NCBI GenBank assembly: GCA_020632555.1
Contig: JACKFI010000001.1
Coordinates: forward strand, 1,750-65,749
Length of the DNA stretch: 64,000 nucleotides
Reading direction: 5' to 3'
Source: Candidatus Omnitrophota bacterium
Lineage (GTDB): Bacteria > Omnitrophota > Gorgyraeia > Zapsychrales > JANLHA01
Positions 36,248-64,000 of the stretch are shown one piece after another; the first letter of the stretch is position 1, and every line of letters starts with the position of its first letter. Under the pieces are notes generated by a model. The model saw only the letters and a program-made list of their open reading frames with translations, searched no databases and was not told the DNA's origin. Made by a program: the position numbers and the translations under genes.

Positions 36248-39200
36248 CTAGTAAACTTCAGCTAAAGCAAAATTTTGACTTTGTTTTACAGATAAACCTA
36301 ATAACAGCGGAAGACTCACGGGAGTTGTTTGAATAATAATTGGCGTAATGCCGCTAAACGGAATAACCGTAGACGTTTCCGGGTCAAAAAGAATTACTGA
36401 AGAAGCAGGACGATCTGTTTGTTCTTCAAGTTGCCAATTCTGCGGATTTAAATCAATACCCCCGGGCGGCTCGACATCGAGAGAAGAACTAGCAGCTTTT
36501 GGGAGTTGAGAATTTTGCTTTTGATCTTTGAGCCAATCTTCAACTTTGGGTTTCAACAATTTCATCGCTTCCTCAAAACCCTTTCTTGACGTTTCTGCTT
36601 CCTCATGACGCACGCCTAAATTCCCAACCGTTTGCGCATACTCAAATTCTTTGCCCGGAATTTCAACAGCTAAACGCGTTTCATATCTGCCTCGTTCTTG
36701 ACTTTGCGTGACATGCAAATCAAATAATTTTCCGGAAATATTAATTTGTATTAAAAAATTAATTCTTTGATTCTCATACGCCGGTTCAATCAAATTTAAC
36801 CGCTTCGTTTGAATCTCATCTAAAGTAAGAACCTTCGTTGACTCTCCCAACGGAACAATGCCCCCGAAACCCTGACTACGCGCATTTTTGTTAAGTTCAA
36901 TTAACGCCTCGTCAAATACTTTTGAAAAATCTGTCCCACTTTGCCGAGCATAAAGATTTCCCCTCCACCCATTGGGTCGGCCGTTTTTATCAATACGGAA
37001 AACAACTGTTTTATGAGCTTCGTCTTTTATTTTTTCCCTACCCGACCAGGCTCTATCGTGCCCGCCAAATGCCTGAATAACCATATCAAACGCCTCACCT
37101 TGAACATTAACCGGAACTTGAACGGCCAGACTCTCCCCAAGAGCGTAAGACTTTTGTGCTAAAACTTCGCCGACGGCTTTTAAAATACTTTGTGCATTAT
37201 TTTTTTCAGATGTTGGCACTTGAGCTAACCGACGGTCAACCACCTCTTGCAAAGGGGTCTCTCCCTCTTTGCGCACCAAATCAACATCCCATGATTTATC
37301 AAAATCTTCATAAGACAAAACAAAAACATCATTCGGGTTATATTTCTTCCCAATAAAACCAGACAAAACATCTGCCGCCTTTTTCTGATCATCAGCACTA
37401 ATATTCTTACTGGGATCTTTTAATCCCGCCATAATTTCTTTTTGACTACCCGTAAAAGAAGGAGCCTCTGTGACCGACATCCCTATCGCCGGACCACCCG
37501 TCTCTTTATTAGGAACAATATTACTATTTAACCAAGACATATCCGCCGACTTCACCTCTGCGTCTGCTATACTCGCCCTTTTTTGCGCATCACTTTTAAC
37601 TTTGACCAAATCCGGCATTGTACTCTTGAGAAATTTCTTCATAAAATCAGTAAAAAACTGTCCCGACGGACCCTCTCGAAAAATATCAGTGGATAATTCT
37701 CTGGCCCGGGTGCGAACCTCAGGCAACTGGTTACGATCATATCGATCTGAAAAAATTCTTCGCAAATGATGGAGAAGCAAATCTCTATCCGTAAAATATT
37801 CGGCAAACTCACGATCATGCGAGACCTCGTGATATCCCATATGCGTTAAAAGCTTTTTTAGAAATTGCTGTTCTTCCTCTGTAAGTTTTTTCTTAACCTT
37901 TAACACTTCTTGTTGATACTGTTTGTCATGCTCATACAAAGCATGACCTTTTTCATGCTCCCGAACCGTGTGCTCATCCGCTTGTTCTAAATCATTAGAA
38001 TGGACCAAAATATTAACATCTTTGTCCCCGACAAATTTACCGCCTTGATTTTTTATCACTTGCTTTTTTTCTAAAAAATCTTTAAATTTCTTTTCTTGTG
38101 GCGTCAATCGATTGCCAGCCTGATTAAAAAACCTTGCCAACTCATTAGCCGTCGCATTATAAGCTGTAAACAACGAATCTTTCTTTTTCCCAAAACGATC
38201 AGAGTCTATATCCCCCGTCGATGTCAAAAGCTCGTCGACTTTCTGAGAGCTGACAACCTGACCTTGATAACCCGGATGTTCTTTCCAAACTCCAAAACGA
38301 TTTAACATCTCTCCCATTTTACTGATATTCGCAATAGCGACTTCCCATGTCCCCGGTAAGCCTTTAACAGCCTGCATACCAAAATCCTGACCAAAAGCAA
38401 TCTCAACTTGAGGCTGCGCGGCAATCGAAGGCGCAAAACTATCTTGCGCAAAACTATACGTTACTGGGGGCGGTTCTTCAATTGTCATTGTTCTAAACGT
38501 AGCCCTCTCTTCCTCAACCTCTTGCATTGCTCTCGAAAGCAGCTGGCCAGGAAGAACCTCGACAACCTCACCATTTGCGCCTAACAAATAATGATTCGCG
38601 GCTTTTAATTGTTCTTTCGATAGACCAAAAGGATTTCTAGGATCACCGCCTTCTTGAGGATTGATAAACTCCGTAGTCAGATTCGAAGACAAAGAATCAT
38701 TTGGATCTAAAAACCCTTCCCCTAAAGGTTTTCCATCGATGCGCATTATTAACGGTTTTACTTCTTGTTGTTCTTCAGAGTTTTTTGCTTGTTGCTCAAC
38801 AGATTTCTTTAGATCTGGAAAACCTACCAAAACCGCCTCTAATCTTGGTGCTGCTTCAATCGGCCGAGTTTCACTTCCCTGTGGCCCCCACCAAGCCATC
38901 ACGGATAAATGAAATAATAGAGACGTGCTTAAAGCGGCAACAAACCCACGATTTTTACCCCCACGATTTAACCCCAGATATGTCAGCACTTGATAGGCCT
39001 TACCCTTTTGTACACTTTCAACTTCTACGGCACTGCCGGCGACGGTAAGTTGGGTTTGCAAATTTGTCACTGTAATCCCGCCGGAGAAATACTTCTTTGG
39101 AATCATCTCCTGCGTCAACGGATCAATATCTTCTTTAATAATATTGTAAATTCCCTTCTCGAAAGATTGGACATAATCATCATAAATTCTTTCCTTCAAA

Positions 39201-40126
39201 GACAAATCATCGACCTCGACACCTGTCACCTTATCCTGTTGAGCATAATTCTTACCCAAAAAACTTTCGCGCAAGTTTTTCTTAAACCATACCGCGAGAA
39301 TTAAAGAATGATACACTTGGCGCAATTGTGCAAAATTTTTTCCCTCGTTAACTTCTCGCTCCAAAGCAGGAATCAAAATTTCCTCAGTAGCATTGCGCGC
39401 AATAATATTCTCGGGACTATCCTCTGCCACAAAACTCTGCGCATCTTTACTCTGGTTCTGATAACGACGGTAATCTTTATCCAACATAACTTTCAAATGT
39501 GTCTGCCCCACAAAAACCTTATCGTCTTGGCGATAAATTCTCGCAACATCCGGGACAATCCAAACACGATTAAACGTGTTAACAGCAATATCAATGGTCC
39601 CGTATTTCTCAACAAGTTCTTGATGAATATTCGCCCAGAATCTTTTTCCGACCTTATCGCCAGGATTAATCAAAGAACTGCTCAATTGCTTCAAAAGATA
39701 ATCTTGCGCCAAAAGCGTCATGCCCATTTGCGTCGAACCAAATCCGTCTGGAATAATCCGAGTCTTCTCATCCGGCGAAAGATTAACCCACATATTTTGA
39801 TCCGGCACAGTCAAAGACGCTAAGAAATATTTAATAAGTTGTTCTGATTGAGTTTTTAACGACGCCTCTGATAAAATCTCATCGCCAGGATCAATAATAA
39901 AATTAAACTTCAACGGATCATCCGGAAAATATTGCAAGCCACGCAAAACCGCTGGCGAATACGAAGGACTTTGATAAACCATCTCCCCCGGCAAGGGCAA
40001 AGCAGCGCTTTGCGCCAAAGCAGGGCTCACCGGCGCCAAGATCATGTTAACGATAAAAGCCAAAAGAATGCCGCTCGCCATAGAACGACGAACGGCAGAT
40101 TTATTTTTTGTATTAAGTTTTTTCAT
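36248..40126 (-). CDS. Very large secreted protein P1 (1292 aa), unknown family; paralog of P2
   Basis: Uninterrupted ORF with a signal-like N-terminus (ILLAFIVNMILAPVSPALAQ). N-terminal ~330 aa align block by block with P2. The C-terminal ~60 aa (GGIDLNP...LPLLLG) is shared with P2 and P3. Contains HEKGH at 37943..37957. Confidence 0.85.
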   Translation of the reverse strand: MKKLNTKNKSAVRRSMASGILLAFIVNMILAPVSPALAQSAALPLPGEMVYQSPSYSPAVLRGLQYFPDDPLKFNFIIDPGDEILSEASLKTQSEQLIKYFLASLTVPDQNMWVNLSPDEKTRIIPDGFGSTQMGMTLLAQDYLLKQLSSSLINPGDKVGKRFWANIHQELVEKYGTIDIAVNTFNRVWIVPDVARIYRQDDKVFVGQTHLKVMLDKDYRRYQNQSKDAQSFVAEDSPENIIARNATEEILIPALEREVNEGKNFAQLRQVYHSLILAVWFKKNLRESFLGKNYAQQDKVTGVEVDDLSLKERIYDDYVQSFEKGIYNIIKEDIDPLTQEMIPKKYFSGGITVTNLQTQLTVAGSAVEVESVQKGKAYQVLTYLGLNRGGKNRGFVAALSTSLLFHLSVMAWWGPQGSETRPIEAAPRLEAVLVGFPDLKKSVEQQAKNSEEQQEVKPLIMRIDGKPLGEGFLDPNDSLSSNLTTEFINPQEGGDPRNPFGLSKEQLKAANHYLLGANGEVVEVLPGQLLSRAMQEVEEERATFRTMTIEEPPPVTYSFAQDSFAPSIAAQPQVEIAFGQDFGMQAVKGLPGTWEVAIANISKMGEMLNRFGVWKEHPGYQGQVVSSQKVDELLTSTGDIDSDRFGKKKDSLFTAYNATANELARFFNQAGNRLTPQEKKFKDFLEKKQVIKNQGGKFVGDKDVNILVHSNDLEQADEHTVREHEKGHALYEHDKQYQQEVLKVKKKLTEEEQQFLKKLLTHMGYHEVSHDREFAEYFTDRDLLLHHLRRIFSDRYDRNQLPEVRTRARELSTDIFREGPSGQFFTDFMKKFLKSTMPDLVKVKSDAQKRASIADAEVKSADMSWLNSNIVPNKETGGPAIGMSVTEAPSFTGSQKEIMAGLKDPSKNISADDQKKAADVLSGFIGKKYNPNDVFVLSYEDFDKSWDVDLVRKEGETPLQEVVDRRLAQVPTSEKNNAQSILKAVGEVLAQKSYALGESLAVQVPVNVQGEAFDMVIQAFGGHDRAWSGREKIKDEAHKTVVFRIDKNGRPNGWRGNLYARQSGTDFSKVFDEALIELNKNARSQGFGGIVPLGESTKVLTLDEIQTKRLNLIEPAYENQRINFLIQINISGKLFDLHVTQSQERGRYETRLAVEIPGKEFEYAQTVGNLGVRHEEAETSRKGFEEAMKLLKPKVEDWLKDQKQNSQLPKAASSSLDVEPPGGIDLNPQNWQLEEQTDRPASSVILFDPETSTVIPFSGITPIIIQTTPVSLPLLLGLSVKQSQNFALAEVY

Positions 40127-40149
40127 AATGAATGAACCGTTAGCTCAAT

Positions 40150-40203
40150 TTTAAAATCCCCCGCTTCGCTGCCCCCTTTAATAAAGGGGGCTTGGGGGTT
40201 TTT
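40150..40203 (-). terminator. Nested GC hairpins followed by a T-rich run, between P2 and P1
   Basis: Minus strand reads AAAAACCCCCaaGCCCCCTTtattAAGGGGGCagcgaagcGGGGGATTTTAAAATT, starting 3 nt after the P2 stop. Confidence 0.55.
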
Positions 40204-40205
40204 GA

Positions 40206-43200
40206 TTAACTTGCGAGATTGGCTGCCAACTCGGCTTCTTTGGCAGGTTCCTTAGGGGCTTGGCCTAAAAAGATTGGCAAAGTCTGCGCGTTAATAGGAA
40301 CGATATTAATAATAATCGGAAACAAACCTTGAATATTAATTTGTTCTAAATTCTGTTGCGGTAAAGGCAGCGGAACACCTTTGCCGTCACGTTTGATTTG
40401 CAAATTCATATTGGTCGGGTCAAAGTCAATACCCCCGACAGGTGCGGAAGCAACCGTTTCATTAGCCGCAACATCCGCAGCTGCAAACTCTGGGAATCGC
40501 TCATCCAAAGCCTCTCGCGCCCATTTCAAAATACGAGAATAATGAAAACCCTCTAATTGATCATTATTTCTCAATGGCAATGGCCTATCACTCCCCTTGA
40601 CCTTGACGGATGTTGCCCACACTTGCAAATCTTTTGGTGATTCTATCGCCCCAAAATAACTTCTGAATAATTCTCTAAGGGCATCTTCTGCCGTCGGGTA
40701 TAGCTCTCCGTATTTAACATAATTAGGCAAATTAACAAAATGGCGCAATAAGCCCAGCGACACATAAAGACCTGCCGTACTAATCCCATATTGACGTACA
40801 AGATCTATATCTTTTTCAGTTGTCTTCTCCGTTGCCAACAAATCAAGATAATCATTTAAATTACGAATTTCCTGATTGTCCGACTCCTGGCCAGTCAGCA
40901 AAGTTAAATCCTGAATATTAATTGTTGCTTTAAACAATCGTTTATTAAGCTTTACAGCTTCAGCCTGACCTCTGGTTCTCATTGCCATTAACATCAACTC
41001 TTTTACTGATAAAACCGTTCCTGGCTGTACCATTCCTAAATTGCTTAACACACGGGATAAACTACGGCGTGATACCTCAAAACGAGGATCATTAGCCCAT
41101 ATTTGATCAACCTTAGCCCATCGCTGAGCAGATAAAACACGTTCAAAACTAATCACAGGATTAAACAGCTGCCCATCTGGATGTTTCATATCCTTTGTGG
41201 AAACAAAATTCCCCTCTCCATCAGGAACTTCAAAAACTCTTACATATCCCAAAAACTGATTAAATAATTGTTCACTATTACGCAAAGCCTCTGCAGACGA
41301 TTCAGCGGCTTGAGCTTCTAGCTCTGACAATAATCCTACCCATAATTGAGGTTCGCCGGGTTCATCGCGAAAATAATACGGAATCTCTTGAAATGTTCCG
41401 CCAATATTTTGTCCTGACCCCAAAGTTGTTAAAAAAGTCCCATCTTCTAAAGGAAAATATACTCGCCGCCCATTGGCAACCTTAAACTTTGCTTTCTCAT
41501 AATAGCGATCTGTCACAGCTATAACTATTTCTTCTTTTAACTCTGAATGAGCGACCACCTCAAGCGCTGTTTTAGTGGACCCAACACGAAAACTAAGATA
41601 TTTTTGCATTAATTCCAGAATCGTCATATTACCAATTTTTTGCTGAACCAAATCCTTATTTGACTCTAAAACTTGCAACTGTCCGACACTGCTGCCTGGC
41701 AAACGTTGCATAAATACTGGCCGTAAAGAACGATCGTTTAATAAGGCATATTTAACTTGAGCAGTAAACAAGTTTAATAACGGCTGATAAAGCTCAAGCC
41801 CACCTGGCTCATTAATACCCGGAAATGTCTCTGTTTGCTTAACGATATAAGCTGTCCATGCCGCCTCCAACTCTACTGGGTTTAAATCCTCGGCTAATTT
41901 CTGCCCCAAAGCGCTGGAGGCGCTTTGATCACCAAAAGTTCCTAACATCCTCCACAAAGCTAAATCTTGAATTGATCCCACAACAGCATCCAACGTATTA
42001 TCTAACGGCTGATGATCCACAAAATAATCCCTGCCCCGATTTATAAATTCTTGCACAACAGTATTAGTATTTGCTAGCCCTCCATCAAGACCCAAATGAA
42101 TACCCACACGCTTCTCATCTTGAGATACAACAGCCAGCAATTCACCATTGGCATTTTTATTAAGATAAAATTGCACCTGGGCTTGCCCCCATTGCTCGGC
42201 TTCTTTTCCAAACTGATTATACTCAGTGAGCAATCGGTTCAACTCGTCTCCCCGATAAACACTCCCTGCTTGATTACGAGCAGTATTATTAGCCCCTCCA
42301 TTCCGTGCTTTTTGTAAAGCATCTTTACGGTCTAATTCCTCAAACTCCTGATAATAAGCCGCCATTCGCTGAATACCATCTTCTGCAAGATCAATCCACT
42401 GGGCGTCGATTGGCAATTGCTGTCTTGCTGTTTGCATCGCACTCTTACGATCTGTTTCTCCTAGAGCCATTAACTGGTCAACAGCTTGATCAAGTCCATG
42501 CCGCGATTGAACTATTTGCTTTTTCTGTAACGGCTCTACAGCCTTATCAACTAATCCCTCATAATACATTTCAACAAGTTCAATATTCTGGCCAGCCGCG
42601 TCTTTTCCGAGAACTGCTTGAACAACAGCCACTTGCGATGCGTCTGCAGGCAAGCCATTTACTGCCCGTAATTCTTCTGCCGCTTGTAAACGCATTTGTT
42701 CGATCAAGTTATCAATGGTGCTGGAGGCGACAGCTTGAGATTGCTGATATTTAGCCATTAACTCTTCTGGAGAAGCTGTAACAAAATTCCCTTCTAAAAT
42801 TGCAAAACCGATTAGTGTGCTTTCATGGCTAAACAGCTTAACTACCGTAAAATCATTTTTGCTGCTATCACGATATAATCTTGCCTCATATTGATTTTTA
42901 TCATCAATGTCGCCAGATTTAATATTATTGCTCCCATTAACACGAAACAAATTCTTTTCTGCAATGGCTCGATTGAGCGCATCTAAAGCGCTGGAAGCGG
43001 CGAATTGCTTTAAAGTCTTCTCTAACAATGGCTTTATGATTTCTCCGGGGATTCCATTCGTAAGATCCAGTGAAGCTAAAATGCCAGACATTTCCTCTTT
43101 CGTAACTCTAAAGTTAGGCTTTATAGCATCAATGGTACTTTGATCCAATGTATCTTGCATAATATCCTCAATGGACCCACCTGGTTGTGCCCACACTTGC

Positions 43201-45323
43201 AAATACATTTCATAGAGGGCCTGCTGCAAAACACTCTGAGCATAAGATCTATCTTGACCACTGAGACTGTTTAAATCCGGTTTTGTTTTTGCTAATTCTG
43301 CAAACAATGCATCCGCTTGGTCAATAACATTATCCCTCGCACTGGATGTTTCTGTTTTAAACTGTGACGAAATTGTTTCTCGTAAATCATTATTGTGCGC
43401 AGCCATTTGTGAAATTTGATCTTCAACAATCTCTTGAGTAAACTTACTCAGCGCATCCCAAATCTCTCCGGCACCAAATTCTAAATACATTTGGGGTGTC
43501 CACTCTGCCAGCAAGGTTAAATTGCTTATATCCGGTCTATATTTATCTAAAAGATTACGGTGCTGATTTATAAATTCTGCCTGTTGCTCTAAAGTCAATA
43601 CGCGTTGGGCTGCTTGAACAACTTCCAATGGAGCTTTAGCATTCCATTGTTCTGGATTTTTAATACGAGAAGCTTCTGGTTCAACTGCCAAGACATCATA
43701 ATATTGCGCGAATTTATCGTATCCATCAGTTAACATTTGCTTTATGTGCTCTATGCCAGCCTCATTGGTTTTATTAACATAATTTGCCAATGTATCAAAA
43801 TACTCCATTATGCTCTTCTGCTCCTGAGCACTACTATGCTTGTACAATAATGATTGCTCGACTTTCATCTTCATATATTCAACACTAATATCTGACAAAC
43901 CATCCCTCAAATTGTACCAATACGCCTCAAATCGTTGATAAACCTTTTCAATCCGGGATTCTTGCAAACGATCAACGGCATTCTCAAAATCCTCAACATT
44001 TTTTTCAAAGTTTTTAACCGTGCTGGAAGAGACGGCAGCAAGTTGATCTGCTTCAGCATTGGGTTCCCCCAACTGAATTGTGGCAGCGTGAATTCCAGAG
44101 CTGGCGGATAATGTTCTTTCTGTTTGTAGTGGAGACCCAGCGATAATTCTTAATACTCCTGCAGTCTGACCTAACATTTCAATCCCGCCTGAGAAATACT
44201 TGCGCGGAATCAGGTCACCAGCTGCGTCAACTTCTTCTTTAATCAAATTGTAAGCACCTTTCTTAAAGGCGGCTAAGTACTGTTCATAAATGTGCTGCTT
44301 CATCTCTTTATCGTCGGTTTCAACACCAGCGACTTTACCTTGATCAGCATACACTTTGCCCAGCAAACTTTCTTTCAAAGCTTTTTTGTACCATGCGGCT
44401 AAAATGACGGAATTATAAATCTGACGCACATCGGCGAAATCTTTGCTTTCGTTGACGGCTTTGTCGATGGCAGGCAAAATGGTTTGGCGGAAGATATTAG
44501 TTGAATTATTAGGGACTAGGGGTTGGGAGTTGGGGGTTAGAGACTGACCGGTGGATGTGTCATTGCGAGCGACCAAAGGAAGCGAAGCAATCTCTGCTTT
44601 CGAGATTGCCGCGTCGCCCTGCGGGCTTCTCGCAATGACAGTGCTTTTTGTGACTGTTTCATAGTCCTCTGCGAGCATAACCTGCAACCGTTTTTCGCCA
44701 ACCAAAACAATGCCATTGCTTTCTAACACTTCGGCTTTGACAGGCATGATCCAAACTTTGTTCAACTGGTTAGGGACTAGAGGCTGGGGGTTAGGGGTTA
44801 GAGAGCGTCTAGCGTCCACTGTCTGCGCAGCATTGACCTGATCCCAATATTTTTTTCCCAAATCTGTTTCGGGATTGGTTAAGGAAGCTGCCATTTGTTT
44901 CAGCACATAATCCTGCTCCAACATGGTCTTGCCCATGGTCGTTTGGCCTAAGACGTCGGGAATAATGCGATCTTTTTCATATGGGGAAAGATTCACCCAA
45001 ACTTCTTTATCGGGAATGGTTAAAGCGGCTAGGAAATATTTGACTAACTTTTCGGTTTCACTTTTGAGTTCTTCACCTGAAAGTTTGGATTGACCTTGAT
45101 CAACAATAAAATCAAATAAAAGCGGGTTTTCAGGATGAACTTTAAGCCCCAGCAAAATAGGCGGTTGGAACCCCGTCGTCAAGGTCACCGGACTGTTGAG
45201 AACTGGTAAGATCTGCGCACCGGCTGGAGCAACAATCAAGGAAGAAATAAAACTCACCAAAATCACACTGCACGTCAATTTTTTATAAAATCTTAAAGAC
45301 CAACGACAAAAAAGACCCTTCAT
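40206..45323 (-). CDS. Very large secreted protein P2 (1705 aa), unknown family; paralog of P1
   Basis: Uninterrupted ORF. AAGGGGGAG RBS before ATG 45323 and a signal-like N-terminus (VILVSFISSLIVAPAGAQ). Shares N- and C-terminal modules with P1. Carries in-frame copies of the Z and W repeats. Confidence 0.85.
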   Translation of the reverse strand: MKGLFCRWSLRFYKKLTCSVILVSFISSLIVAPAGAQILPVLNSPVTLTTGFQPPILLGLKVHPENPLLFDFIVDQGQSKLSGEELKSETEKLVKYFLAALTIPDKEVWVNLSPYEKDRIIPDVLGQTTMGKTMLEQDYVLKQMAASLTNPETDLGKKYWDQVNAAQTVDARRSLTPNPQPLVPNQLNKVWIMPVKAEVLESNGIVLVGEKRLQVMLAEDYETVTKSTVIARSPQGDAAISKAEIASLPLVARNDTSTGQSLTPNSQPLVPNNSTNIFRQTILPAIDKAVNESKDFADVRQIYNSVILAAWYKKALKESLLGKVYADQGKVAGVETDDKEMKQHIYEQYLAAFKKGAYNLIKEEVDAAGDLIPRKYFSGGIEMLGQTAGVLRIIAGSPLQTERTLSASSGIHAATIQLGEPNAEADQLAAVSSSTVKNFEKNVEDFENAVDRLQESRIEKVYQRFEAYWYNLRDGLSDISVEYMKMKVEQSLLYKHSSAQEQKSIMEYFDTLANYVNKTNEAGIEHIKQMLTDGYDKFAQYYDVLAVEPEASRIKNPEQWNAKAPLEVVQAAQRVLTLEQQAEFINQHRNLLDKYRPDISNLTLLAEWTPQMYLEFGAGEIWDALSKFTQEIVEDQISQMAAHNNDLRETISSQFKTETSSARDNVIDQADALFAELAKTKPDLNSLSGQDRSYAQSVLQQALYEMYLQVWAQPGGSIEDIMQDTLDQSTIDAIKPNFRVTKEEMSGILASLDLTNGIPGEIIKPLLEKTLKQFAASSALDALNRAIAEKNLFRVNGSNNIKSGDIDDKNQYEARLYRDSSKNDFTVVKLFSHESTLIGFAILEGNFVTASPEELMAKYQQSQAVASSTIDNLIEQMRLQAAEELRAVNGLPADASQVAVVQAVLGKDAAGQNIELVEMYYEGLVDKAVEPLQKKQIVQSRHGLDQAVDQLMALGETDRKSAMQTARQQLPIDAQWIDLAEDGIQRMAAYYQEFEELDRKDALQKARNGGANNTARNQAGSVYRGDELNRLLTEYNQFGKEAEQWGQAQVQFYLNKNANGELLAVVSQDEKRVGIHLGLDGGLANTNTVVQEFINRGRDYFVDHQPLDNTLDAVVGSIQDLALWRMLGTFGDQSASSALGQKLAEDLNPVELEAAWTAYIVKQTETFPGINEPGGLELYQPLLNLFTAQVKYALLNDRSLRPVFMQRLPGSSVGQLQVLESNKDLVQQKIGNMTILELMQKYLSFRVGSTKTALEVVAHSELKEEIVIAVTDRYYEKAKFKVANGRRVYFPLEDGTFLTTLGSGQNIGGTFQEIPYYFRDEPGEPQLWVGLLSELEAQAAESSAEALRNSEQLFNQFLGYVRVFEVPDGEGNFVSTKDMKHPDGQLFNPVISFERVLSAQRWAKVDQIWANDPRFEVSRRSLSRVLSNLGMVQPGTVLSVKELMLMAMRTRGQAEAVKLNKRLFKATINIQDLTLLTGQESDNQEIRNLNDYLDLLATEKTTEKDIDLVRQYGISTAGLYVSLGLLRHFVNLPNYVKYGELYPTAEDALRELFRSYFGAIESPKDLQVWATSVKVKGSDRPLPLRNNDQLEGFHYSRILKWAREALDERFPEFAAADVAANETVASAPVGGIDFDPTNMNLQIKRDGKGVPLPLPQQNLEQINIQGLFPIIINIVPINAQTLPIFLGQAPKEPAKEAELAANLAS
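44509..44546. repeat. W repeat copy inside the P2 coding sequence (encodes SLTPNSQPLVPN)
   Basis: TTAGGGACTAGGGGTTGGGAGTTGGGGGTTAGAGACTG, a direct repeat of 44770..44807 located 261 nt (87 codons) away. Confidence 0.8.
44558..44640. repeat. Z element copy 2, in frame inside P2 (encodes TVIARSPQGDAAISKAEIASLPLVARND)
   Basis: It has the same termini (TGTCATTGCGA / TCGCAATGACA) and inner GCAATCT...AGATTGC hairpin as the intergenic copies. The frame check (45323-44639 divisible by 3) confirms the reading frame continues through it. Confidence 0.85.
44770..44817. repeat. W repeat copy inside the P2 coding sequence (encodes SLTPNPQPLVPN)
   Basis: TTAGGGACTAGAGGCTGGGGGTTAGGGGTTAGAGAGCGTCTAGCGTCC. 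The CGTCTAGCGTC tail also occurs at 10319..10332. Confidence 0.8.
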
Positions 45324-58512: not shown

Positions 58513-59811
58513 TTACTTGATCGCGCGAATAGCGACGATACGATCTAACAGGGAGCCCTTTTTAGTTCCCGCTCCCAAAGACAAATCAGAAACAATCACC
58601 CGGTTAACCACCCGCGTTTGATCCGTTGCTCCCGCCGTTTCTCGATACGCAAACGCAGCATGAATCGCATAAGGCTGCTGATCCACCATCCCTAAATATA
58701 AAACAATGTGCCCTTTTAGCTGCGCAATCGTAATGCCGGCAGTGGCTTTTTTAAAAGTTTCAATTTGTCCTTTGGATCCCAAAAGCTCACCAACCTGCCC
58801 CTGCTCAGAAGAATTGCGCGGCAATTCGATACCCACCGTCGAAAAAACTTGTTTTAAGAATGCTGAACAATCCTGCTGTCCATTAAGCCCACCCCAGCCG
58901 TAAGGGGCGTTGAGCATTTTAAAGGCCTGCTCAATAATCACGCGCGGCGTATATGTCAAATACCCCATATTAATATCCCGACGATGAATAAATAAACTCT
59001 GTCGCGGCGCTATGGCAACCTCTACGCTATCCGCATGGACACCATTAACCGCCAAACGCATTCCCATGCGAACATTATCGTAAAATTGTGTTCGCTCTCG
59101 ATCCCGGTAAAGATCCGCTTTAGCTGAAATCACCACGGCAAACTTCTTGGCAGTCAACTGATTTAAAAACTCATCTGATGAAACAAATTCTAAATTTTCT
59201 TTTTTAACCCAGCCAGCACTGGCCGCAGTTTGTGTATAAACCCATTGTTCATCCAGAGTTTCCTGAAAAACCACCACGGCCGTCCCCGCATCCAAAGAGC
59301 TGTTCTGGATTTCATCAAACTCAAAATCAAAGGGTTCAGCTGTTAAAATGTCTGTGGTTGGCAGCAACCGTTGATCACATTGCTGAATAACAAAGGCATG
59401 CCGTGGACGTTGATCTTCCATATTATCCAAAACGATATTGTCCTCAATTCGACTAAAAAAGTCACGCGGTGCCAACTTGCCCTCATGGTCAAAATAATCA
59501 CCTCGCGAAAACTTTTTGATTTCTTTTTGAATTTGCGCCGAACTCACTTGCACATCCAAGGAACTCATGCTCAACACATCTTTAACCAACCCATTGGCAA
59601 TTAGTGTTTGATTAAAATGCTGCACATCCGCCGCGTTTAAAACCACGCGATCCGCCAATGGGTTAAGGCTAATCCAAAATCCGGGCCGTTGCATCTGACG
59701 TGTTGTCTGAGGAATGCTGGCTGGCGCGGCGAAATTCAATTTTTCTCCGACGGGTGCGGCAGCAAAAGTTAAACTGGCTATCACTAATGATAAAACCCAA
59801 ATCTTTTTCAT
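58513..59811 (-). CDS. NlpC/P60 (C40) peptidase with N-terminal SH3-like regions (YkfC-like)
   Basis: Catalytic Cys context QQDCSAFLKQVF and a downstream His (GHIVLYLG). Signal peptide at ATG 59811, in an ATGA overlap with the upstream gene. Confidence 0.8.
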   Translation of the reverse strand: MKKIWVLSLVIASLTFAAAPVGEKLNFAAPASIPQTTRQMQRPGFWISLNPLADRVVLNAADVQHFNQTLIANGLVKDVLSMSSLDVQVSSAQIQKEIKKFSRGDYFDHEGKLAPRDFFSRIEDNIVLDNMEDQRPRHAFVIQQCDQRLLPTTDILTAEPFDFEFDEIQNSSLDAGTAVVVFQETLDEQWVYTQTAASAGWVKKENLEFVSSDEFLNQLTAKKFAVVISAKADLYRDRERTQFYDNVRMGMRLAVNGVHADSVEVAIAPRQSLFIHRRDINMGYLTYTPRVIIEQAFKMLNAPYGWGGLNGQQDCSAFLKQVFSTVGIELPRNSSEQGQVGELLGSKGQIETFKKATAGITIAQLKGHIVLYLGMVDQQPYAIHAAFAYRETAGATDQTRVVNRVIVSDLSLGAGTKKGSLLDRIVAIRAIK

Positions 59812-60977
59812 CCTGCCGCCATTCTGCACAGTTGTGCCGTAATAATTCCTAAATACATGCCCATAATATTTCCAAGAATCGCCAGCAACAAACCCACGCA
59901 CGCTAAACCCGGCTGATACATTTCAGCGACTATTGGAGCAGAGGCAACTCCCCCAATATTCGCCTGACTGGCCACCGCCGCTAAAAACATTGGCGCGCGA
60001 ATGATGCGAGCCGCCAACACAATCACGCCCGCGTGAAACAAAACCACCAAAAACCCAGCCCCGATCAAAATCAATACCGCCGAGGCATTGACCATCCCTG
60101 CTTTGGCGCCAATAGTCGTCAACACAAAGTATAAAAAGAAATATCCAATTTTAGACGCGCCGTTTTTCTCCAGCTGACGAGCCGGCGTAAAAGAAAGCCC
60201 AATGCCGATACTGGATGCCACAATAATCGTCCACGCATAGGCTGACAAAACATTCTTTATAATCGGCAAAGACATTCCGATAAACCGTGCCAAAAGCGCG
60301 CCAACTATGGCCAAAAAACAAATCACCGCAATTCTATTCCAAGATCTTTGGACTTGTCCCTGCTGAACAAAACCGGCCGCTCGCACACTCAAATCATCTA
60401 AAATCGTTCGATTGCTACGGTTGATACGGTCAAATTGCCATTGAAATCCCGACGCTATTAATAAAAATCCCAACCACACATAAGGGACAATGGTATCGAC
60501 AATCACCATCGGCGTAAAAACCGCTTCCGACGTTCCAATCGCTTGTTTGACGGCAATCATGTTAGCGCTGCCGCCAATCCAAGACCCCGATAACGCGCCA
60601 AAGCCCGACCACATCGCGCTGCCGACCCAAGGCTTGACCAACCAAAACACCAAAGGCATTCCCAGCATAATCCCCAGGCTTCCCGCCAACATCATAATCA
60701 GCGCCGGTCGTCCTAATCGCAAAATCGATTTGATATCCGCTGAAAGCAGCAATAAAATTAAGCTCGCCGGTAAAAACCAATTGCTAATCATTTGATACAC
60801 TGGCGATTTGGAATCAATCCATCCTAAAATCGAGCACAACATCGGCAAGAAATAAATCCAAAATACCGCCGGCAAAAATGAGAAATATTTTTTAAAACTC
60901 CGGTGAGATGAAACATAAAGAACTGCAATTTCAGTTACTAACAAGAAACTAATTAATAAATAAGGTGAACGAATCAT
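59808..60977 (-). CDS. DUF819-like polytopic membrane protein (putative transporter)
   Basis: About 11 TM segments. SGSWIGGSANMIAV resembles the DUF819 signature as I remember it. Start and stop overlap both neighbours. Confidence 0.55.
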   Translation of the reverse strand: MIRSPYLLISFLLVTEIAVLYVSSHRSFKKYFSFLPAVFWIYFLPMLCSILGWIDSKSPVYQMISNWFLPASLILLLLSADIKSILRLGRPALIMMLAGSLGIMLGMPLVFWLVKPWVGSAMWSGFGALSGSWIGGSANMIAVKQAIGTSEAVFTPMVIVDTIVPYVWLGFLLIASGFQWQFDRINRSNRTILDDLSVRAAGFVQQGQVQRSWNRIAVICFLAIVGALLARFIGMSLPIIKNVLSAYAWTIIVASSIGIGLSFTPARQLEKNGASKIGYFFLYFVLTTIGAKAGMVNASAVLILIGAGFLVVLFHAGVIVLAARIIRAPMFLAAVASQANIGGVASAPIVAEMYQPGLACVGLLLAILGNIMGMYLGIITAQLCRMAAG

Positions 60978-62068
60978 AAAGAAGCCGCCGAAAGCCCAAT
61001 GCCAGACTTCACATTGGAGACATCATAAATTCCTTTAGACGTCAAATACGTAATTTGACGAAGTCCGCCGATGCGAACCGCGGGAGTTATAAAAAATGGT
61101 GTATCCAAATCCACATATTTAAAACAATTCATTCCCGCGGCCAGATGCGCGGCGGCTGTCATCGCCAACGGACTTTCCATCATCCCGCCGATCATAAGCT
61201 CCAATCCAGCGGCTCGCGCCAAATTGGCCGCTTCCCGTGCCTGCACCAAACCAAACTTCATCAATTTGATATTAATCACCGCCGCTGCTTTTTCACGAAT
61301 AATTCGCGCAACATCCTGCAGACTGGCGGCACTCTCATCGGCACACACCAAAACATCACCAAGAGCGCTGACCCTCTTTAAACCTTCCCAATCTTCTTTG
61401 GGGACCGGCTGTTCAATCAACTGTGGACGCACGCCCAGCAATTTCAACTCTTTAAGAAAGTTCAAAGTTTGATCAGCAGTGTATCCTTGATTAGCGTCGA
61501 GAATAATGTCCGAATTGCCTGTGGCTTTTTTGACCGCGGCCACTCGTTTTAAATCAAGTTCCATATCGCGGCCAATTTTAACTTTGAAGCTGCGAAAACC
61601 CTGACGATAAAAATTCTTGGCGGCCAGTGTTGTTTCTTCCACGCTATTGATGACAATGGTGATATCGCTGCGCAATTTCCCCGGTTTTGCGCCAAAAAAT
61701 TTCCACAAAGGAATATTCAACTGCTGTGTCAAAGCATCTAAAAGGGCCATCTCAACCGCCGCCACGACGCTTTTATTACGCGAGAACATTTGCAGCAGAT
61801 ATGAAGACAAAGTCTGATAATCAAAAACATCTTGGCCAACAAAATCTTCACTAATATCCTGTAAATGGCTCTGCGTCAGTGGTATTGTTTCACCGGTGAT
61901 ATGGCTGGCAACTGCTGCCTCGCCAGAACCTTTGGTGCCGTCGGACAGCTCGATTGAAAAACTTAAATTTTCTAAACTGTCATGCTGACCTAAGGCGGTG
62001 CGAAACGGCGTGATCAACTTGGCATTAAGAGGCTGGACACTGCACTTTTTAATCTGACTTTTTTGCAC
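60974..62068 (-). CDS. Dipeptide (L-Ala-D/L-Glu) epimerase, enolase superfamily
   Basis: MR/MLE pattern: KVKIG, DANQGY, IEQP, CADES, plus conserved K and D positions. 364 aa. Confidence 0.8.
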   Translation of the reverse strand: MQKSQIKKCSVQPLNAKLITPFRTALGQHDSLENLSFSIELSDGTKGSGEAAVASHITGETIPLTQSHLQDISEDFVGQDVFDYQTLSSYLLQMFSRNKSVVAAVEMALLDALTQQLNIPLWKFFGAKPGKLRSDITIVINSVEETTLAAKNFYRQGFRSFKVKIGRDMELDLKRVAAVKKATGNSDIILDANQGYTADQTLNFLKELKLLGVRPQLIEQPVPKEDWEGLKRVSALGDVLVCADESAASLQDVARIIREKAAAVINIKLMKFGLVQAREAANLARAAGLELMIGGMMESPLAMTAAAHLAAGMNCFKYVDLDTPFFITPAVRIGGLRQITYLTSKGIYDVSNVKSGIGLSAASL

Positions 62069-62147
62069 GGATTATATTACCGCAAAAGAAAATCACCGGC
62101 AAGACAAGATTCGAGAGGTTTTTCTACCTTATCGATTACAACATCAC

Positions 62148-62594
62148 TCATAATCCAAGAGGTTTAACTGGTATGCCGTGGCTTTTGCAGTAAGAAATCA
62201 TTTTGACGTCGGCTGTCATAATCGCGGCATGAATATTTTTGGCTGTCATCAAAATCAATCGGTCTGCGGGATCCCCATGAACATCATCACCCATTTGTGT
62301 ACTCTCCAACAAAATATCCACTGATAATGGTTCAACATCTAGCCCATGACCTTTCAATGATTCTTTCACCCACAAAGCAACATCTTTGGACAAAGTAATC
62401 CGCTTCTTGGCAACCAGCATCCCTAATTCCCATATGGAAATTGCAGAAATCCGTAAAGCATCACGACGAGCATATTGCTCAATCCAGCGCAAATGATCTT
62501 TATGATTAAGTTCCTCATTGCCATTAATCAGCCATATCCACACATGGGTATCCAAAAGCAAATATTTTGTTCTAGCTGTCTGTGTTTTGGGCAT
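62148..62594 (-). CDS. vapC: PIN-domain toxin VapC
   Basis: LLDTHVWIW N-terminal acidic motif and a later D (PADRLI). 148 aa, overlapping the upstream antitoxin. Confidence 0.8.
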   Translation of the reverse strand: MPKTQTARTKYLLLDTHVWIWLINGNEELNHKDHLRWIEQYARRDALRISAISIWELGMLVAKKRITLSKDVALWVKESLKGHGLDVEPLSVDILLESTQMGDDVHGDPADRLILMTAKNIHAAIMTADVKMISYCKSHGIPVKPLGL

Positions 62595-62808
62595 CCCACG
62601 ACTCCTCTAACGAAGAAACAATATCGCCCTTGACCACAACCGAACCTTTTAGCAATCCAAATAAAGATTCCTTGGTTTTGTTGCTAACGCCAACCATCTT
62701 AACGATGGGTTTGCCATATTTGGTAACAATGACCTCACGATGATGTTTGTGCACATCATCCATGATCTTTAAACACTGTGCTTTAAATTTTCCTGCGGCA
62801 ATTAACAT
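62572..62808 (-). CDS. Phd/YefM-family antitoxin
   Basis: MLIAAGKFKAQCLKIMDDV....EVIVTKYGKPIVKMV is a typical Phd/YefM N-terminus. ATG 62808 behind GAGGAGGGGAG; the track start is TTG. Confidence 0.8.
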   Translation of the reverse strand: MLIAAGKFKAQCLKIMDDVHKHHREVIVTKYGKPIVKMVGVSNKTKESLFGLLKGSVVVKGDIVSSLEESWDAQNTDS

Positions 62809-62866
62809 AGCTCTCCCCTCCTCATTACCCAAAGAATAACATGGTCACACTTAATAGTCAAATTTA

Positions 62867-63046
62867 TTATCTTTTGGAAAGAACAGCCTCGGGCTGGACA
62901 TTCAACTGTCCGAGAATTGGCAAGGTTTGGGCATTGACGGGTAGAATGTTAAGAATAACAGGATACAAACCATTGATATGGATGTTTTCTATGTCCTGTT
63001 GCAGTAAAGGCAAAGGAACACCACGGCCGTCGCGCTTGATTTGCAA
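62867..63046 (-). pseudogene. Displaced 3' fragment (59 codons plus stop) of a P3-type gene
   Basis: 62894..63046 matches 63711..63863 at 151 of 153 nt by my hand alignment. It encodes LQIKRDGRGVPLPLLQQDIENIHINGLYPVILNILPVNAQTLPILGQLNVQPEAVLSKR. There is no start codon, and an in-frame TAG lies 10 codons upstream. Confidence 0.8.
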
Positions 63047-63048
63047 TT

Positions 63049-63192
63049 TTATCCACGCGAAACAACTGTTTGTCTAGCAGGGTACTTATCTCGCAATTTC
63101 TTTAAAAAAGTCTTGCGATCTTTCAAAAACTCACGACTTAATTTTTGACGGGCTTTACGCTGCAAGACTACGGCATCAAATTTCTTTTTCAT
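63049..63192 (-). CDS. 47-aa basic ORF overlapping the 3' end of the PIN gene (possible partner/antitoxin)
   Basis: Below the ORF-track cut-off. My translation is MKKKFDAVVLQRKARQKLSREFLKDRKTFLKKLRDKYPARQTVVSRG. The ATG at 63192 overlaps the PIN ORF by 17 nt. Confidence 0.4.
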   Translation of the reverse strand: MKKKFDAVVLQRKARQKLSREFLKDRKTFLKKLRDKYPARQTVVSRG

Positions 63193-63643
63193 TGAGCACC
63201 TCCCTAGGACTGCGAATCTCTAATACAGAAAATCCAAACTTTAAATTTACTGAATTAAATAAATGGATTCTGTTCAAATTTACGATCTGCTTAAAATTCC
63301 AACTCACCAAAACATCGACGCGTTCTAAAGTTGCTATTGCAATATGTTGAGCATCTGCTAAATGTTTATTTGTTACAACTTTATGACGAATATATTCTTT
63401 TGCCAGAGCTTCCGCATCATCAGAGAAACTCACCTTTTCACAAGACGATTGCGGTATTTTACCTACCAATGCTCGTACAGACTCTGGAGCAAGCTCAAGC
63501 TCTTCTAAAGTCAGGTCTGAGATAACCGCTACTTTCTTATACTCATGAAATTCTTGGAAAAGCCTTTTTGACCAATGTTCAAACTCAATGTCAAAGCACC
63601 CACCAATTACGGACGTATCAATATAAACTCGAGGAATTTTCAT
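63176..63643 (-). CDS. PIN-like domain protein (toxin-like)
   Basis: VYIDTSVIGG N-terminal acidic motif, with later acidic and ADAQHIA motifs. 155 aa. Confidence 0.7.
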   Translation of the reverse strand: MKIPRVYIDTSVIGGCFDIEFEHWSKRLFQEFHEYKKVAVISDLTLEELELAPESVRALVGKIPQSSCEKVSFSDDAEALAKEYIRHKVVTNKHLADAQHIAIATLERVDVLVSWNFKQIVNLNRIHLFNSVNLKFGFSVLEIRSPREVLNEKEI

Positions 63644-63683
63644 TTCTTAATTCTATCCATAAATACAAAATTTTCCATATATT

Positions 63684-64000
63684 TTACCCTTTTGACAACA
63701 CGGCTTCTGGCTGGACATTCAACTGTCCGAGAATTGGCAAGGTTTGGGCATTGACGGGCAGAATGTTGAGAATAACAGGATACAAACCATTGATATGGAT
63801 GTTTTCTATGTCCTGTTGCAGTAAAGGCAAAGGAACACCACGGCCGTCGCGCTTGATTTGCAAATTGAGTTTGGACGGGTCAAAATCAATACCCCCCTTG
63901 GTGAAGTTGCTAGCTGCAGGAGAAGAAACACTGATATTATCGACGGTTGACCCTTCCACAACCGCGTTGGAGGACGCGGATGCGAGTAAGACCTCAAAGA
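63684..64000 (-). CDS. C-terminal end of a third large P1/P2-family protein (P3); 5' part outside the window
   Basis: The frame stays open upstream of the ORF-track GTG at 63959, all the way to position 64000. The C-terminus GGIDFDPSKLNLQIKRDGRGVPLPLLQQDIENIHINGLYPVILNILPVNAQTLPILG closely parallels the P2 C-terminus. Confidence 0.8.
   Translation of the reverse strand, partial: FEVLLASASSNAVVEGSTVDNISVSSPAASNFTKGGIDFDPSKLNLQIKRDGRGVPLPLLQQDIENIHINGLYPVILNILPVNAQTLPILGQLNVQPEAVLSKG

Follow-up and report, generated by a model that had tools for sequence, protein, structure and literature searches.

Duplicated gene ends around toxin-antitoxin cassettes in an Omnitrophota gene family, and their likeness to C-terminal displacement arrays

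We consider here the 3' end of P3, a gene that runs off the edge of a 64,000-nucleotide (nt) stretch of DNA from a Candidatus Omnitrophota bacterium (GenBank assembly GCA_020632555.1, contig JACKFI010000001.1, positions 1,750 to 65,749), which we call the window. P3 shares a C-terminal module of about 60 amino acids (aa) with P1 (36248-40126) and P2 (40206-45323), and together they belong to a family of large multi-copy proteins, the P family. The end of P3 is present twice, the two copies bracket a small cassette of the toxin-antitoxin (TA) type, and the arrangement may record the displacement of one gene end by another. All genes in this part of the window lie on the minus strand; the copy at 63711-63863, which the initial annotation called upstream, is the one proximal to the gene, and that at 62894-63046, its downstream copy, is the distal one.

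The two copies measure 153 nt each and repeat with a period of 817 nt. Our alignment agrees with the initial annotation in finding only two mismatches between them (151 of 153 positions identical), T/C at 62942 and A/G at 62951, both of which are synonymous changes in leucine codons (CTC/CTT and CTG/CTA). The 5' edge of the repeat is sharp. The proximal block lies within the partial 3' end of P3 (63684-64000, minus strand), whose open reading frame (ORF) leaves the window at 64000 and closes as ...GGIDFDPSKLNLQIKRDGRGVPLPL...QPEAVLSKG followed by a stop codon, which confirms that this copy is the true end of P3. In translation, the module GGIDFDP...LQIKRDGRGVPLP...LPILGQ is followed by the tail QPEAVLSKG; the P3 protein carries the module GGIDFDPSKLNLQIKRDGRGVPLPLLQQDIENIHINGLYPVILNILPVNAQTLPILGQ and the tail LNVQPEAVLSKG. 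The current tail PEAVLSKG and its stop codon occupy 63684-63710 (minus strand), directly beyond the block. The distal block, with its own tail PEAVLSKR and stop codon, makes up an orphan P-family 3' end at 62867-63046 (minus strand), recognised by comparison with P3 and by its collinearity with a gene of another genome described below. This orphan had been said to have no start codon and an in-frame stop 10 codons before its first homologous codon; the stop is there, and the sole codon that could serve as a start is the TTG that encodes the leucine of NLQIKRD. A ribosome-binding site is not obvious by eye. The NCBI annotation lists the orphan as a 59-aa hypothetical protein, H6753_00360 (P0007).

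Between the two copies lie only the ORF of a 155-aa PIN protein (63176-63643) and an ORF of 47 aa (63049-63192), which overlap by 17 nt, and the layout is therefore A-B-A' and not A-B-A-B. The 3' end of P2 is 76-80% identical to either copy and, as had been noted, clearly more diverged from both than they are from each other. A look-up of the VapC protein gave only a short-read Logan contig (L001, assembled from SRR12358676). It matches the window exactly and breaks off after 31 nt of shared sequence, where the copies first differ in base, as a k=31 graph would be expected to do at a real repeat.

The PIN-domain protein, a putative toxin, is encoded by the first gene of the inserted cassette (63176-63643, minus strand) and matches PF01850 with E=1.4e-4 (22.9 bits against a cut-off of 23.6). 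Homologues of about 154 aa number more than 5000 and are spread over many phyla; apart from the protein itself, the closest is 76% identical. Its basic 47-aa partner (63049-63192, minus strand) follows the PIN gene, with a stop codon 2 nt before the orphan block begins, and could not be assigned to any antitoxin family in Pfam or NCBIfam. An ORF of 45-50 aa with the same N-terminal 35 residues (MKKxFDAVxxQRKxRQKLSREFxKDRKxFLxKL) and the same 17-nt overlap follows PIN homologues at three other loci (L084, L085, L086), none of which has an adjoining P-family module; judging from these ORFs, the PIN gene and the 47-aa ORF are a conserved two-gene unit. Exact-protein look-ups of the PIN protein, the 47-aa ORF and the orphan (P0007, P0121) gave no match. 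We also observe that the partner ORF of a 69%-identical PIN homologue from another Omnitrophota metagenome-assembled genome (MAG) ends in ...YLSKG and a stop (L085:5572-5585, L086:743-756), where 14 nt (TTGTCAAAAGGGTA) are identical to the P3 tail, a borderline match (E about 0.02). This stretch could be a remnant of an earlier tie to a family gene end.

Directly after the orphan comes the second pair of genes, which had been labelled Phd/VapC and which profile searches recover as such. The 3' flank of the orphan together with the Phd-like antitoxin ORF (62572-62832) spans 62572-62866 (minus strand); the ORF matches PF02604 (E=1.6e-4) and TIGR01552 (E=9e-4), both below cut-offs, and its start is probably the ATG that gives MLIAAGKF.... 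The VapC (PIN) toxin of this distal cassette lies at 62148-62594 (minus strand) and matches PF01850 with E=2.3e-13. A small Phd-like gene upstream of a PIN gene with a 23-nt overlap (62572-62594) is the organisation of a type II TA system, at 62148-62832. The orphan flank holds a promoter-like TTGACT-17-TATTCT site; our scan for promoters and terminators gave matches at chance level, this one included.

Is this assembly of cassettes an insertion? Four related MAGs provide empty sites (L005, L006, L007, L012), in which MR_MLE, DUF819 and NlpC/P60 orthologues come 11-211 nt after the stop codon of the family gene. These conserved neighbours, named by their Pfam labels and lying outside the element, occupy 58513-62068 (minus strand) in the window with 72-75% nt identity to the four relatives, and they identify the locus as the orthologue of the empty sites. 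The region upstream of MR_MLE begins 11-18 nt past the family gene stop in the relatives and resumes in the window at about 62102-62126, within the right edge of the insertion at 62069-62147 (minus strand). Since the stop adjoins the MR_MLE neighbours in all four relatives, about 1.56 kb comprising the PIN cassette, the orphan and Phd/VapC is an insertion. The initial annotation had proposed an insertion of the PIN cassette and the fragment at the 3' end of the gene; the empty sites support the insertion itself and place Phd/VapC within it as well. Scans of genomes and metagenomes found no closer relatives of the strain, the best module identities being 92% and 87%.

Two small features stand at this site. 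The 43 nt between the VapC stop and the MR_MLE upstream region (62105-62147) read ...AAGGTAGAAAAAC..., which resembles the end of the L006 tail and its stop (AAGGATAAAAAC), and from this weak likeness the stretch may be a 12-nt trace of the ancestral P3 stop region. In L005 (1118-1329), the family gene stop coincides exactly with an insert of 211 nt that contains palindromes and has GGGATAAA at either side. L006 and L007 lack this insert, which resembles a miniature transposable element and, as such, is a second type of insertion at this position.

The origin of the orphan can be approached through another MAG, L004, in which a family gene of more than 561 codons is intact. From the module of this gene through its tail and 3' flank to the start of a Phd gene, the L004 sequence aligns with 63045-62816 of the window at 78% identity over 230 nt, and the alignment includes the TTGACT-17-TATTCT site and the first Phd codons (MLIA...). 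A unit of gene end, flank and Phd/VapC therefore exists elsewhere on a working gene.

The comparison of the two ends within the window points the same way. The similarity between them extends past the 153-nt block through the last 9 codons, but with 9 mismatches in 27 nt there, compared with 2 in 153 for the block (Fisher p=5e-7). Seven of these 9 codons differ, six synonymously and one non-synonymously, and the sole residue to change is the last (G/R). None of 100,000 simulations with 9 random substitutions gave one amino-acid change or fewer in the tail, and the tail ...AVLSKG/S is conserved across the P family. With tail differences that are nearly all synonymous, the two ends must derive from different functional genes that diverged long ago. 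The near-identity of the 153-nt block would then reflect either the high identity that recombination requires or a later gene conversion between the repeats. The duplication had been taken for a recent one; as a simple recent copy of P3's own end it is not borne out, since the tails are saturated with synonymous changes and the orphan, its flank and Phd are collinear with the intact L004 gene. These alignments favour a reading of the orphan as a displaced gene end that is older and has a cassette of its own.

The next question is whether the same layout is found at other members of the family, as the initial annotation had suggested looking for. The module occurs in 188 stretches of GTDB species genomes and in 279 stretches of metagenome contigs, and our survey kept 160 loci with about 190 modules. 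Of the genome loci kept, nearly all bear the title Omnitrophota or, for one series of MAGs, "uncultured Planctomycetales", and the P family is Omnitrophota-specific. Some MAGs have at least 12 module copies, often in tandem. Nearly all surveyed modules stand at the end of ORFs, which range from hundreds to more than 3000 codons, and the identity seen between family members is 76-84%. In the window the paralogue modules are 76-80% identical, those of P2 and P3 about 80% with short perfect runs. The two complete members here, P1 and P2, have in common an N-terminal sequence that resembles a signal peptide when judged by eye and a conserved N-terminal region; neither has a Pfam or NCBIfam match, and hence neither has an Rhs/YD domain.

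Searching all fetched loci for module copies without a long ORF before them, we find four further independent arrays of gene end, TA cassette and orphan module fragment among about 190 family gene ends, each with TA families other than that of the window. At L055, a HEPN and nucleotidyltransferase (MNT) pair lies by the gene, the repeat is 106 nt long with 92% identity, and a Phd-like gene and VapC follow the orphan. L114 has HicB-like and HicA genes by the gene, a repeat of 146 nt (96.6%) whose orphan copy bears a nonsense change, and groES after it. L102 has a small ORF and a DUF6036/AbiEii gene, a repeat of 104 nt (92%), and then DUF5678 and an aspartyl protease. L122, which is the same sequence as L128, has DUF433 and DUF5615 genes, a repeat of 120 nt (84%), and then RelB-like and ParE genes.

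The five arrays have much in common. Block identity ranges from 84 to 98.7%, and the tails after the block diverge in every array. What separates gene end and orphan is in 5/5 arrays a two-gene cassette of the TA type; its last stop codon is 0-93 nt away from the repeat, and in 4/5 the cassette ends within 0-19 nt of it. Each array has a different TA family and a different fragment boundary: the 5' edges of the orphans fall at module nt 21, 30, 57, 58 and 67, different each time and all within the first 70 nt of the module of about 180 nt. Empty-site relatives exist for L102 (L070) and for L122 (L115). Between gene end and orphan, the five arrays together show 35 synonymous against 9 non-synonymous codon differences, a bias from which it follows that the copies belonged to functional genes while they diverged. 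Among 79 small ORFs that lie no more than 1.5 kb from a family gene stop, there are 14 matches to TA families, in a set that includes L055 and for the top 25 families listed, while control small ORFs more than 3 kb away have one TA-related match visible among 150 ORFs, again among the top 25 families listed.

Several further observations concern the module and its genes. The sequence CAAATCAAGCGCGA, which encodes QIKRD (63840-63853 and again 63023-63036 in the window), is identical in P3, the orphan and 6 of 7 other aligned genes (L004-L017), third positions included; the remaining gene has a single synonymous change, and this conservation exceeds what protein constraint alone would need. P2 and P1 form a tandem 79 nt apart (36248-45323), and the P1 module is divergent, being without LQIKRDG.GVPLP and retaining GGIDLNP and G.TPIII...P. 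At L002 (7977-8150) and L003 (6666-6842) the module is out of frame with a long upstream ORF that it overlaps by 4 nt, and the L003 frame shift coincides with a tandem 7-nt repeat, GTCACCA GTCACCA; sequencing error, pseudogenisation or an on/off switching of the module could be the cause. L168 (5001-5363) has a stand-alone 120-aa ORF with a complete module, between ROK kinase and alpha-amylase genes; no long family gene precedes it. Short proteins that carry a module on long contigs were considered as further arrays and set aside, as they are mostly frameshifts or error-rich long-read contigs (L002, L003, L167) or this stand-alone gene. An AlphaFold model of the module alone was too poor for a structure search (pLDDT 66, pTM 0.30). 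Over the whole window (1-64000) the GC skew is negative in each 2-kb bin (-0.07 to -0.28), and the minus strand carries nearly all of the long ORFs.

We turn to the question of how such a layout could arise. The explanation that we regard as moderately probable is C-terminal displacement as described for rhs genes, in which recombination is anchored in the conserved module, older ends are shunted downstream, and TA cassettes travel as cargo. The order of events that we infer would start from an ancestral state with the P3 stop directly upstream of MR_MLE. A first unit, consisting of the 3' part of a module, a tail, a promoter and Phd/VapC, would have become the end of the gene. A second unit, with the 3' part of a module, a different tail, and the PIN gene and its 47-aa partner, would then have recombined into the P3 module by homology, possibly through a single crossover of a circular intermediate carrying a fragment of the conserved region. 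The new tail, arriving with the PIN cassette, would have become the end of P3, and the previous end would have moved 817 nt downstream as a silent orphan with Phd/VapC still attached. As old ends are shunted downstream, the cassette that adjoins the gene would be the newest. Recombination between the repeats would delete the intervening DNA, and the loss of an addictive TA pair would be counter-selected, which may be why TA pairs survive between the repeats.

The initial annotation had likened the layout to the orphan cassettes behind polymorphic-toxin genes, and the likeness is apt, as a single-crossover circle model has been proposed for rhs C-terminal displacement (PMC2935791). Its geometric reading, a single-crossover (Campbell-type) integration, is in large part upheld. 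It had also suggested that the conserved C-terminal module serves as portable homology between family members. The layout does recur at other genes of the family; movement between paralogues of one genome is doubtful, given their identity of about 80% and their short perfect runs.

Several points weigh against C-terminal displacement. The circular intermediate is something that we infer, and the model leaves the origin of the first fragment-plus-cassette unit unexplained. The identity of paralogue modules in the window, 76-80%, is too low for efficient RecA recombination, so the donors would be near-identical alleles or another joining mechanism would be at work; exchange between near-identical alleles or orthologues is more plausible than exchange between paralogues within a genome. 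Behind the distal cassettes (Phd/VapC in the window, the second ones in L055, L102 and L122) no clear orphan is seen, so that at least some insertions probably left no duplicate, as would happen if one side joined by homology and the other illegitimately, close to the stop codon. The identity of the block could be due to a real recent copying event instead of conversion. Finally, there are only five arrays among about 190 gene ends, and the control for TA enrichment rests on the top 25 families and has L055 in its near set.

Two other explanations, both of which we regard as unlikely, deserve to be set against C-terminal displacement. One is the loss of a tandem paralogue: the locus would once have held P3, the PIN cassette, a full P4 and Phd/VapC, of which P4 was lost save for its last 59 codons, the block being homogenised later by gene conversion. 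Tandem family genes are indeed common (P2/P1, L018, L022, L028, L041, L042, L067, L078), the synonymous bias of the tail divergence fits a formerly functional paralogue, and so does the collinearity of the orphan with the intact L004 gene end. All five orphans, however, begin in the first 70 nt of the module and 0-93 nt past a TA stop, a coincidence that random deletions in genes of 1000-3000 codons would not repeat; remnants of intermediate length are nearly absent from the survey, and a single family gene adjoins MR_MLE in the four relatives.

The other is a local copying of P3's own 3' end, by which an error of replication or repair, or a homology-facilitated illegitimate insertion of the PIN cassette, re-copied 153 nt without any foreign module. 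This improbable course of events would account for the sharp 5' edge and for a block identity of 98.7%, far above the 76-84% among family members. It would not account for tails that differ synonymously at nearly every codon, nor for an orphan tail and flank that match the intact gene end of another genome, L004. In L055, L102 and L122 the blocks differ by 8-16%, mostly synonymously, and neutral decay would not yield this. A simple tandem duplication, moreover, predicts A-B-A-B with neutral divergence, whereas we see A-B-A' and 35 synonymous against 9 non-synonymous differences.

Site-specific integration, with module DNA as the attachment site of an integron-like or integrase-like recombinase acting in trans, appears very unlikely. 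TA cassettes are classic integron cargo, the cassettes here end tightly on the repeat (0-19 nt in 4/5 arrays), and CAAATCAAGCGCGA in the module is near-invariant even at synonymous sites across the aligned genes. The unit itself holds only the PIN gene and the 47-aa ORF and no recombinase, there is no integrase gene among the ORFs of 62000-64000, and the junctions fall at five different module positions. DNA fold z-scores of -1.5, -1.7, -0.2 and +0.3 give no attC-like hairpin and Rfam has no match, so that we reject a reading of the repeat as attC or other structured DNA (z-scores from -1.7 to +0.3). An assembly artefact, in which two family gene ends had been joined into a chimera inside the shared block, might be feared in a MAG, as short-read graphs break at the repeat, and is extremely improbable, since the junction of the 47-aa ORF and the block joins non-homologous sequence that an assembler would not invent, the same architecture is found in four other assemblies from different projects (with L122/L128 assembled twice, identically), and the MAG most likely comes from a project of hybrid Nanopore-plus-Illumina assembly, to judge by its co-occurrence with HK-STAS-OMNI-2 in SRR12358676 and by PMC8518188.

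We return to C-terminal displacement. What took place at P3 is, on this explanation, a displacement with two different gene ends, not a fresh duplicate of P3's end, and a variant of the process already known for rhs. Searches of the literature, among it TA papers and two 2026 Omnitrophota preprints, gave no description of the arrangement. How TA cassettes without a recombinase of their own spread and build up in chromosomes is poorly understood outside integrons and transposons. The loci described here carry a readable footprint of empty sites, displaced ends and mosaic repeats, which suggests that the cassettes travel by homology with a conserved module of multi-copy host genes; C-terminal displacement would then extend beyond polymorphic-toxin genes and into an uncultivated phylum. 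We can go one step further, tentatively and with more doubt than confidence: the TA pairs may be recombinase-free cassettes that use the family's 3' module as an attachment site, excise as small circles between module copies, re-insert in similar genes of the same or another cell, and are kept since TA loss is lethal. If true, recombinase-free TA cassettes would have a general route, driven by host recombination, for TA mobility and the building of TA arrays. In practical terms, short orphan ORFs such as H6753_00360 would be displaced gene ends and not genes, and short-read assemblies of these genomes break there.

It is instructive to compare the arrays with known systems. The distal pair, a Phd-like gene and a PIN gene with a 23-nt overlap, is like the type II VapBC and Phd-VapC systems, and the proximal pair has a PIN-like protein in common with them; unlike in VapBC, the small partner of the proximal pair comes after the PIN gene, and it has no match among known antitoxin families. 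With the TA cassettes of chromosomal integrons the arrays share compact cassettes, promoter-poor or self-promoted, a repeated element between them and, on our explanation, the newest cassette in proximal position, but the repeated element here is host-gene coding sequence, with no attC-like fold and no single core site. Campbell-type integration of phages and islands into the 3' ends of tRNA or protein genes also leaves a direct repeat of the target 3' end around the insert, an intact gene, and the displaced original end distal to the insert. It differs in that no integrase is found in or beside the 817-nt unit, the junctions vary between events, and the insert here is a single TA pair.

The closest comparison is with the displacement arrays of rhs and contact-dependent growth inhibition (CDI) genes. 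In rhs arrays each dissociated end starts with a piece of the core, which varies in length (Jackson et al. 2009, PMC2935791); the cores are identical within a locus, very high identity is needed, and a single crossover of a circular intermediate has been proposed (PMC2935791). Orphan CdiA-CT/CdiI and Rhs-CT modules are among the subjects of Poole et al. 2011 (PMC3150448). The differences are considerable: the P family is unrelated to Rhs/YD-repeat proteins or CdiA (P1 and P2 have no Pfam or NCBIfam match), the displaced end is a tail of 9-30 aa and not a toxin domain, the cargo consists of autonomous two-gene TA cassettes with their own promoter-like region and not of an immunity gene matched to the tip, and the conserved region is the extreme C-terminal module, of which only 100-155 nt are duplicated. 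The organisation is nevertheless the same in its main points. A full-length gene has a conserved region and then a variable end; the downstream fragments (in the window, L055, L102, L114 and L122) start with part of the conserved region, in a copy whose length varies; the conserved parts are nearly identical within a locus and the ends differ (blocks of 84-98.7%, boundaries at nt 21-67); the newest unit would adjoin the gene; and the array is an insertion relative to related genomes (L005/L006/L007/L012, L070, L115).

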